Source of the DNA: Escherichia coli
GTDB lineage: Bacteria; Pseudomonadota; Gammaproteobacteria; Enterobacterales; Enterobacteriaceae
Assembly (NCBI RefSeq): GCF_003334315.1
Contig: NZ_QOWR01000005.1
Reading direction: 5' to 3' (one strand)
Length of the DNA stretch: 64,000 nt
Shown: positions 34,726-36,686 of the stretch, one piece after another
Position numbering within the stretch: the stretch's first letter is position 1
Layout: each line of letters opens with the position of its first letter
Notes under the pieces: generated by a model
Told to the model about the DNA's origin: nothing
The model's input: only the letters and a program-made list of their open reading frames with translations
The model's database searches: none
Position numbers and translations under genes: made by a program

Positions 34726-35778
34726 ATGAAAAAGACCCGTACAGCCAATTTGCACCATCTTTATCATGAACCCTTACCCGAAAACCTGAAGCTCACGCCG
34801 AAGGTCGAAGTGGATAATGTTCATCAACGACAGACAACGGATGTCTATGAACATGCTTTAACGATTACCGCCTGGCAGCAGATTTACGATCAGCTGCATC
34901 CGGGCAAGTTTCATGGTGAATTTACGGAAATTCTACTCGATGATATTCAGGTTTTTCGTGAATACACCGGTCTGGCGCTGCGTCAGTCGTGCCTGGTCTG
35001 GCCGAACTCGTTCTGGTTTGGCATTCCGGCGACGCGCGGTGAGCAGGGATTTATCGGTTCGCAATGTCTGGGAAGCGCGGAAATCGCCACCCGCCCTGGT
35101 GGCACTGAATTTGAACTGAGCACGCCGGATGATTACACGATCCTGGGCGTGGTGCTTTCTGAAGATGTCATCACCCGGCAGGCTAACTTTTTGCATAACC
35201 CGGATCGGGTATTACATATGTTGCGTAACCAGTCGGCGCTGGAAGTGAAAGAGCAGCATAAAGCCGCGCTGTGGGGCTTTGTCCAACAGGCGCTGGCGAC
35301 GTTTTGCGAGAATCCGGAAAATCTCCATCAGCCTGCAGTGCGAAAAGTGCTGGGGGATAATTTGCTAATGGCGATGGGGGCCATGCTGGAAGAAGCGCAA
35401 CCAATGGTGACGGCGGAAAGCATCAGTCATCAGAGTTACCGTCGATTGCTTTCCCGCGCCCGTGAATATGTGCTGGAAAACATGTCCGAACCGGTGACGG
35501 TGCTGGATTTGTGTAATCAACTGCATGTCAGCCGCCGCACGCTACAAAACGCGTTTCACGCTATTTTAGGCATTGGCCCGAACGCGTGGCTGAAACGCAT
35601 TCGCCTGAACGCCGTACGCCGCGAACTGATAAGTCCGTGGTCGCAAAGTATGACGGTAAAAGACGCCGCCATGCAGTGGGGATTCTGGCATCTGGGGCAA
35701 TTTGCCACGGATTACCAGCAGCTGTTTGCCGAGAAGCCGTCGTTGACGTTGCATCAGCGGATGCGGGAATGGGGGTGA
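34726..35778 (+). CDS. eutR: AraC-family transcriptional activator EutR
   Basis: 350 aa; C-terminal AraC-type HTH region. Confidence 0.92.
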
Positions 35779-35783
35779 GGGAG

Positions 35784-36686
<903 letters not shown>

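Follow-up and report, generated by a model that had tools for sequence, protein, structure and literature searches.

The 5-bp tail-to-tail junction of eutR and hemF in Escherichia coli: an ordinary convergent gene pair whose read-through probably ends by Rho in the neighbouring gene

How does transcription end where two convergent operons leave almost no DNA between them? In the 64,000-nucleotide stretch of E. coli DNA analyzed here (contig NZ_QOWR01000005.1; hereafter the window), the plus-strand eut operon and the minus-strand amiA-hemF unit meet at the stop codons of eutR and hemF. The initial annotation of this DNA held that the two stop codons lie 5 bp apart, that no terminator fits between them and that each unit must be transcribed into the coding region of the other, and it raised the possibility of mutual interference between ethanolamine catabolism and the heme and cell-wall genes. 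Here we examine the geometry of the junction, how common such geometry is, which termination signals it holds and what published transcript data say about the RNA that crosses it.

The described geometry was confirmed in every respect. Direct reading of the window and the annotations of strains CP53 and MG1655 place the stop codons of the convergent genes 5 bp apart, and a 17-gene plus-strand eut operon (CP53 RefSeq annotation) faces minus-strand amiA-hemF, which is listed as a single transcription unit driven by a constitutive sigma-70 promoter (Shimada 2014, PMC3946193). Coordinates are collected in Table 1. CP53 is the closest complete genome to a 1001-bp junction query, with 99.9% identity and gene ends identical to those of the window (CP53 coordinates of locus L001 convert to the window with an offset of +15299), and its RefSeq annotation gives the eut gene order as eutS-P-Q-T-pta(eutD)-M-N-E-J-G-H-A-B-C-L-K-R. 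In MG1655, hemF occupies 2553225..2554124 and eutR occupies 2554130..2555182, again leaving 5 bp. The 1001-bp query matched 5425 of 5426 complete E. coli genomes and aligned in 5394, while the 100 bp centered on the junction aligned in one piece, mostly over the full length, in 4833 of the 5426. A false stop codon, introduced by annotation or arising by chance and hiding a larger real gap, is practically inconceivable: EutR and HemF have their canonical lengths of 350 and 299 aa in RefSeq, in both CP53 and MG1655, and the C-terminal peptides of both proteins are conserved across genera, including Citrobacter, Klebsiella and Salmonella. This conservation indicates that the eutR and hemF stop codons are genuine.

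Table 1. Features of the eutR/hemF junction and its surroundings, in window coordinates.
Feature	Position	Strand	Remarks
eut operon, 17 genes, eutS to eutR	21005..35778	+	uninterrupted in source strain; CP53 RefSeq annotation
eutR CDS	34726..35778	+	350 aa; TGA stop 35776-35778; direct reading and CP53 annotation
Equivalent of published Rho region	35253..35268	-	MG1655 2554640 corresponds to window 35268; ~516 nt past hemF stop
hemF read-through RNA CTCCCTCACCCCCATTCCC..., first 100 nt	35679..35778	-	antisense to eutR; C-rich, G-poor, rut-like
Imperfect hairpin/inverted repeat GGGAATGGGGGTG / CACCCAATCCC	35765..35797	both	across both stop codons; predicted fold
Spacer GGGAG, 5 bp	35779..35783	none	separates eutR and hemF stop codons; direct reading
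hemF CDS	35784..36683	-	299 aa; TAA stop 35786-35784 (TTA on +)
eut read-through RNA, first 100 nt	35784..35883	+	antisense to hemF; C-rich, G-poor, rut-like
p19-captured RNase III duplex in hemF	36363..36383	-	exact unique window match; 585-605 nt past eutR stop
amiA CDS	36687..37556	-	3 bp upstream of hemF; amiA-hemF unit
sigma-70 promoter of amiA-hemF, TTGTCA-17-TAAAAC	37637..37665	-	unique window match to hexamers in PMC3946193

At the other end of eutR, we observed a GC-rich hairpin (GTGCCGGGTGT/ACACCCGGCAT, ~-23 kcal/mol) in the eutK-eutR spacer at 34686-34725, flanked by an invariant CGGAGG on one side and by the eutR start codon on the other. Its stem is kept with differing sequences in Escherichia, Citrobacter, Klebsiella, Salmonella and Pseudocitrobacter, compensatory changes affecting 4 of the 10 pairs among 20 sequences. 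The stem is not followed by a U-tract, and the hairpin is missing at distant eutR loci. For eutR expression, this element may act as a split ribosome-binding site, stabilize the mRNA or provide a processing site.

Although the geometry was described correctly, treating it as special, as the initial annotation did, does not survive comparison with other convergent genes. Our base-rate sample consisted of seven 50-kb segments of the MG1655 annotation, with 50 convergent CDS pairs, and the CP53 stretch spanning the window, with 3 pairs other than eutR/hemF. By annotation reading, 12 of these 53 other pairs (~22%) overlap or are separated by at most 5 bp, a share of 18% once three recently annotated micro-proteins are excluded. 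The case has mainly calibration value: a 5-bp tail-to-tail gap looks striking in raw sequence, yet about one in five convergent pairs in E. coli is equally tight. The MG1655 segments alone contain 11 such pairs among their 50 (gap in bp, negative for overlap): yadE-panD (3), nei-abrB (-4), ymiD-pdeR (-19), pdeD-yoaE (3), mntP-rlmA (-4), yebW-pphA (0), exoX-ptrB (-4), yebB-ruvC (1), yiaC-bisC (-32), ysaE-hokA (-24) and pmrR-basS (-25). In the CP53 stretch one of the three other pairs is tight, cysM/yfeK, at 2 bp. The TAA stops of cysM (+) and yfeK (-) lie at 51234-51241 of the window on either side of GA, with gene ends at 51236 and 51239, closer together than those of eutR and hemF. A total of 704 convergent pairs has been reported for MG1655, with REP elements in 207 of the 704 convergent gaps (bioRxiv 10.64898/2026.03.23.713779), and at our sample rate this total corresponds to ~130-150 comparable junctions genome-wide. 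The 5-bp eutR/hemF gap is ordinary genome architecture and not a new regulatory device.

As the initial annotation stated, no terminator fits between the stop codons. A 5-bp gap is too short for termination, and a consensus scan for a hairpin followed by a T-run detected no intrinsic terminator in the ~500 nt that follow each stop on its own coding strand. Terminator-like sites in the junction region were, in total, below the shuffle expectation. Rfam covariance models returned 0 matches at E<=1 across 34500-37800 on both strands, and the REP motif CTTATCCGGCCTAC does not occur at 35700-35900, compared with 9 matches elsewhere in the window. Because 5 bp is too short and no intrinsic terminator lies nearby, the untranslated 3' tail of each mRNA must be antisense to the other gene. 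Translation leads to the same result: normal termination by the ribosome requires mRNA past the stop codon, as is known from ribosome rescue, and thus each 3'UTR is necessarily antisense to the last codons of the opposite gene. Any reporter or insertion targeted to the 'eutR-hemF intergenic region' will inevitably lie within both 3'UTRs. Elsewhere in the window, REP-like palindromic units are located at 28500-28539, in the eutG-eutH spacer, and at 40365-40427, in the convergent yfeX/pbp4b gap; the unit between eutG and eutH could attenuate or stabilize the upstream part of the long eut transcript.

One structure does span both stop codons. Folding of either strand predicts an interrupted 12-pair stem whose loop contains or adjoins the stop codons (Table 1). 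Such a stem-loop could be read as a bidirectional terminator of the SEnd-seq type, in which the structure would pause polymerases and head-on and trailing collisions would then release them independently of Rho; a non-canonical Rho-independent type between convergent E. coli genes has been described (bioRxiv 10.1101/2022.10.23.513370). The predicted folds, however, have minimum free energies of -17.8 and -15.6 kcal/mol, which are unremarkable against shuffles (z -1.3 and -1.6), and we rejected the hairpin as a special terminator for this reason. Downstream of the stem lies UGACCUUAAU on the plus strand or GCAUCCGCUG on the minus strand, neither of which is a U-tract, and the stem arms are weaker in Escherichia lineages in which eutR ends with ..QELG*. 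Transcript data also count against this reading: Term-seq places no defined 3' ends at the junction, where expression is low, hemF-strand signal was measured to fall ~500 nt further on, in a bicyclomycin-sensitive manner, and the collision mechanism reportedly needs well-expressed partners, whereas eutR is weakly expressed. We consider a terminator of this kind very unlikely.

The symmetry of the junction has a simpler origin in the encoded peptides. When aligned at their stops, the tails of eutR and hemF are identical at 21 of 42 nt, within the top 0.1-0.7% of random tail pairs, and a larger fold at 35730-35860 displays nested dyad symmetry around the gap (35731-35830, the last ~15 codons of both genes). 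The C-termini of the proteins are themselves alike, ..HQRMREWG* in EutR and ..FIKVRDWV* in HemF, and the junction hairpin arises because ..REWG* and ..RDWV* are similar. Tail similarity is ~18-23 of 42 nt in all relatives, whether the gap is 5 or 973 bp. Since it is independent of the gap, this similarity is a by-product of conserved C-termini and not an adaptation to missing intergenic space. The nested dyad symmetry is likewise present in relatives at any gap size, and we rejected it as a selected bidirectional structure.

Published data support the claim that transcription runs into the opposite gene, and they do so through three observations: a Rho region in eutR, an RNA duplex in hemF and reporter activity past the eutR stop. 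On the hemF strand, a Rho termination region antisense to eutR was reported at MG1655 2554640 (+) (Adams 2021, PMC7815308, supplementary file 2). Upstream/downstream reads at this region were 78/18 in untreated cells and 102/106 with bicyclomycin (p 8.9e-8; few reads, from K-12 in LB). The published Rho score of 4.5 was reproduced when we recomputed it from the published counts (4.50). A weak hairpin at 35267-35253 (-) coincides with this region, but with a z of -0.6 we do not claim it as a pause element. Antisense positions account for 51.5% of all Rho regions in that study, and few regions lie within 50 nt of a gene end (PMC7815308). The curated Term-seq 3' ends from three growth conditions list none for hemF or eutR, and none at MG1655 2553900-2554399 and 2554600-2554699, which make up most coordinates around the junction (PMC7815308). 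The SMRT-Cappable-seq supplements likewise hold no hemF or eutR entry. For the direction from eut to hemF, Adams 2021 (PMC7815308) contains no entry because eut was uninduced there.

Evidence for RNA of eut polarity comes from two other sources. In MG1655, p19 captured an RNase III duplex of 21 bp, with perfect pairing, from within hemF; it is represented by 354 sense and 767 antisense reads, a low abundance of 4-9 RPM (Huang 2020, PMC7373196, Table S3). The duplex shows that eut-polarity RNA covers this part of hemF in MG1655 even in the uninduced state. Its antisense strand could stem from an internal promoter rather than from eutR read-through; a strict consensus promoter scan of the plus strand at 35787-36363 found no antisense promoter inside hemF, which is weak negative evidence only. 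The hemF sense strand also carries, directly adjoining the duplex at 36363-36383, a short hairpin that resembles a terminator and precedes TTTTTTATTG (36344-36367, -), within the codons for HANVRFFIA. Data from K-12 underestimate eut read-through because the eut operon of that strain is split by a prophage. In E. coli 536, a lacZ reporter positioned just past the eutR stop gave no measurable activity in the absence of ethanolamine and 37+/-2 Miller units in its presence (PMC10710832). Ethanolamine-induced transcription does pass the eutR stop, though its absolute level is low.

We favor as the probable explanation an ordinary 'zero-intergenic' convergent junction of two independently regulated core-genome units, in which read-through is ended by Rho in the neighboring gene. 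RNA polymerase arriving from either side would pass its own stop codon and enter the opposite gene. The read-through RNA, being untranslated, C-rich and G-poor, would allow Rho to load and to terminate transcription a few hundred nucleotides in, after which exonucleases would trim the tails to a short 3'UTR antisense to the 3' end of the neighbor. Small amounts of sense/antisense duplex would form and be cut by RNase III and, with the low transcription rates of both units, there would be little or no regulatory consequence.

The composition of both read-through RNAs is consistent with this explanation. C-rich, G-poor RNA is where Rho loads after ribosomes have left. We compared the first 100 nt past each stop with 183 antisense gene tails, for which the median C/G is 1.17. 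The eut read-through RNA contains 32 C and 17 G (C/G 1.88, 96th percentile), while that of hemF contains 37 C and 21 G (C/G 1.76, 93rd percentile) together with 22 YC dimers (98th percentile), placing both RNAs in the top 4-7% for C/G. Untranslated C-rich, G-poor RNA of ~80 nt or more, as expected of a rut-like region upstream of the release site, is found on both strands. In E. coli, Rho is known to terminate 3' read-through and antisense transcripts, as reportedly described by Peters in 2012. For the hemF strand, the published bicyclomycin data, although few reads, support a Rho-dependent end of the signal inside eutR. For the eut strand, RNA composition suggests that read-through is also ended by Rho within hemF, and we infer that interference between the two units is negligible or small.

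Comparison with relatives indicates how much depends on the 5-bp spacing. We examined EutR-based loci from one genome per species and took stop-to-stop distances from tblastn hits extended to the stops. Convergent eutR/hemF synteny is found in Escherichia, Citrobacter, the Klebsiella oxytoca group, Salmonella, Pseudocitrobacter, a Pluralibacter MAG and Intestinirhabdus; at the distant eutR loci (Morganella, Dickeya, Hafnia and others) hemF is not downstream. Four Escherichia lineages have a gap of 5 bp with differing stop codons and spacers (GGGAG, ATAAA, GGTAA). The constant length could hint at constraint, but an absence of indels explains it equally well. The Pluralibacter MAG and Intestinirhabdus have gaps of 8 and 19 bp, respectively, while in Citrobacter, Klebsiella and Salmonella the gap measures 54-150 bp and holds one to three REP-like palindromic units (GCCGGATG...CTTATCCGGCCTAC). 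In E. whittamii the junction carries a 1784-bp insertion with three ORFs, including one of 223 aa (L006:3560-5343), and in E. coli 2020CK-00188 it carries a two-gene insertion encoding a hypothetical protein and a DUF1963 protein (L070:2161-3994). Two of the E. whittamii ORFs resemble a GNAT-toxin/RHH-antitoxin pair. In E. whittamii and this one E. coli strain, the junction has served as an insertion site for small accessory cassettes. The REP-filled gaps of relatives and the ~1.8-kb insertions of rare strains demonstrate that the 5-bp spacing is dispensable; tight eutR-hemF spacing is neither required nor universally maintained.

The same observations can be assembled into a regulatory reading, that of a convergent excludon with reciprocal coupling, in which induction of eut P1 would lower HemF and amiA-hemF transcription would dampen eutR. 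Ethanolamine/B12-driven polymerases and antisense RNA would enter hemF, and perhaps amiA, leading to head-on collisions and RNase III cleavage. Several points agree with such a reading: the 3'UTR of each gene must overlap the other, the RNase III duplex in hemF shows both strands, transcription of the hemF strand reaches eutR, and inducible transcription passes the eutR stop. Additionally, among the 165 convergent excludons called by ExcludonFinder from 58 MG1655 transcriptomes (PMC12288877) are 9 of the 11 tight MG1655 pairs in our sample; tight pairs are thus usually scored as excludons and generally overlap transcriptionally. However, neither eutR-hemF nor cysM-yfeK is among the 165 MG1655 pairs (PMC12288877), an absence that for eutR-hemF is perhaps best explained by the scant expression of eutR in laboratory media. 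Flux beyond eutR amounted to just 37 Miller units in the reporter, the hemF duplex is scarce at 4-9 RPM, and the rut-like composition predicts early termination by Rho. REP insulation in Salmonella, Citrobacter and Klebsiella, together with the insertions at Escherichia junctions, indicates that no conserved coupling has been kept. A full-text literature search combining hemF with ethanolamine terms returned strain-construction or incidental mentions of hemF only, and no expression link between hemF and ethanolamine.

Run-in transcription is supported, but the further step to mutual interference between ethanolamine catabolism and the heme and cell-wall genes is speculative, and on balance we regard reciprocal regulation as unlikely. 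Its most specific form, in which full ethanolamine/B12 induction of an eut-intact E. coli would reduce HemF, and possibly AmiA, through collision and RNase III-processed antisense RNA in an Escherichia-specific coupling, appears more doubtful still. If this were true, Escherichia would couple ethanolamine catabolism to lowered oxygen-dependent heme synthesis, a coupling absent in the REP-insulated Salmonella, Citrobacter and Klebsiella, and interference at this junction would provide a modest lineage-specific example of an excludon.

Much of what we describe is already known in general form. The arrangement is annotated in E. coli genomes, tight pairs, Rho-terminated antisense read-through and excludons are well described, and the key experimental datum for the eutR/hemF junction was already present in a published table. 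Among known systems, the junction differs from overlapping bidirectional terminators (bioRxiv 10.1101/2022.10.23.513370) in that its only local stem-loop is made up of coding sequence and unexceptional. With convergent gaps that hold REP/BIME elements (bioRxiv 10.64898/2026.03.23.713779) the likeness is limited to relatives: the orthologous junctions of Citrobacter, Klebsiella and Salmonella carry one to three REP-like units, which commonly occupy convergent gaps, whereas the Escherichia junction lacks a REP and is too short to house one. Like the convergent excludons (PMC12288877), the eutR and hemF transcripts must overlap and the gap is very short, as in most listed pairs; unlike them, the pair stands outside the 165 of MG1655. 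Rho-terminated 3' and antisense read-through (PMC7815308) offers a close parallel. The difference is that at eutR/hemF only the hemF-to-eutR direction is supported experimentally, by few reads, while the reverse is suggested by composition. The likeness lies in the C-rich, G-poor untranslated RNA past each stop and in a bicyclomycin-sensitive drop a few hundred nucleotides into eutR, with no hairpin and U-tract and no sharp 3' end. Rho-dependent termination within the neighboring gene is the standard solution for tight convergent pairs.
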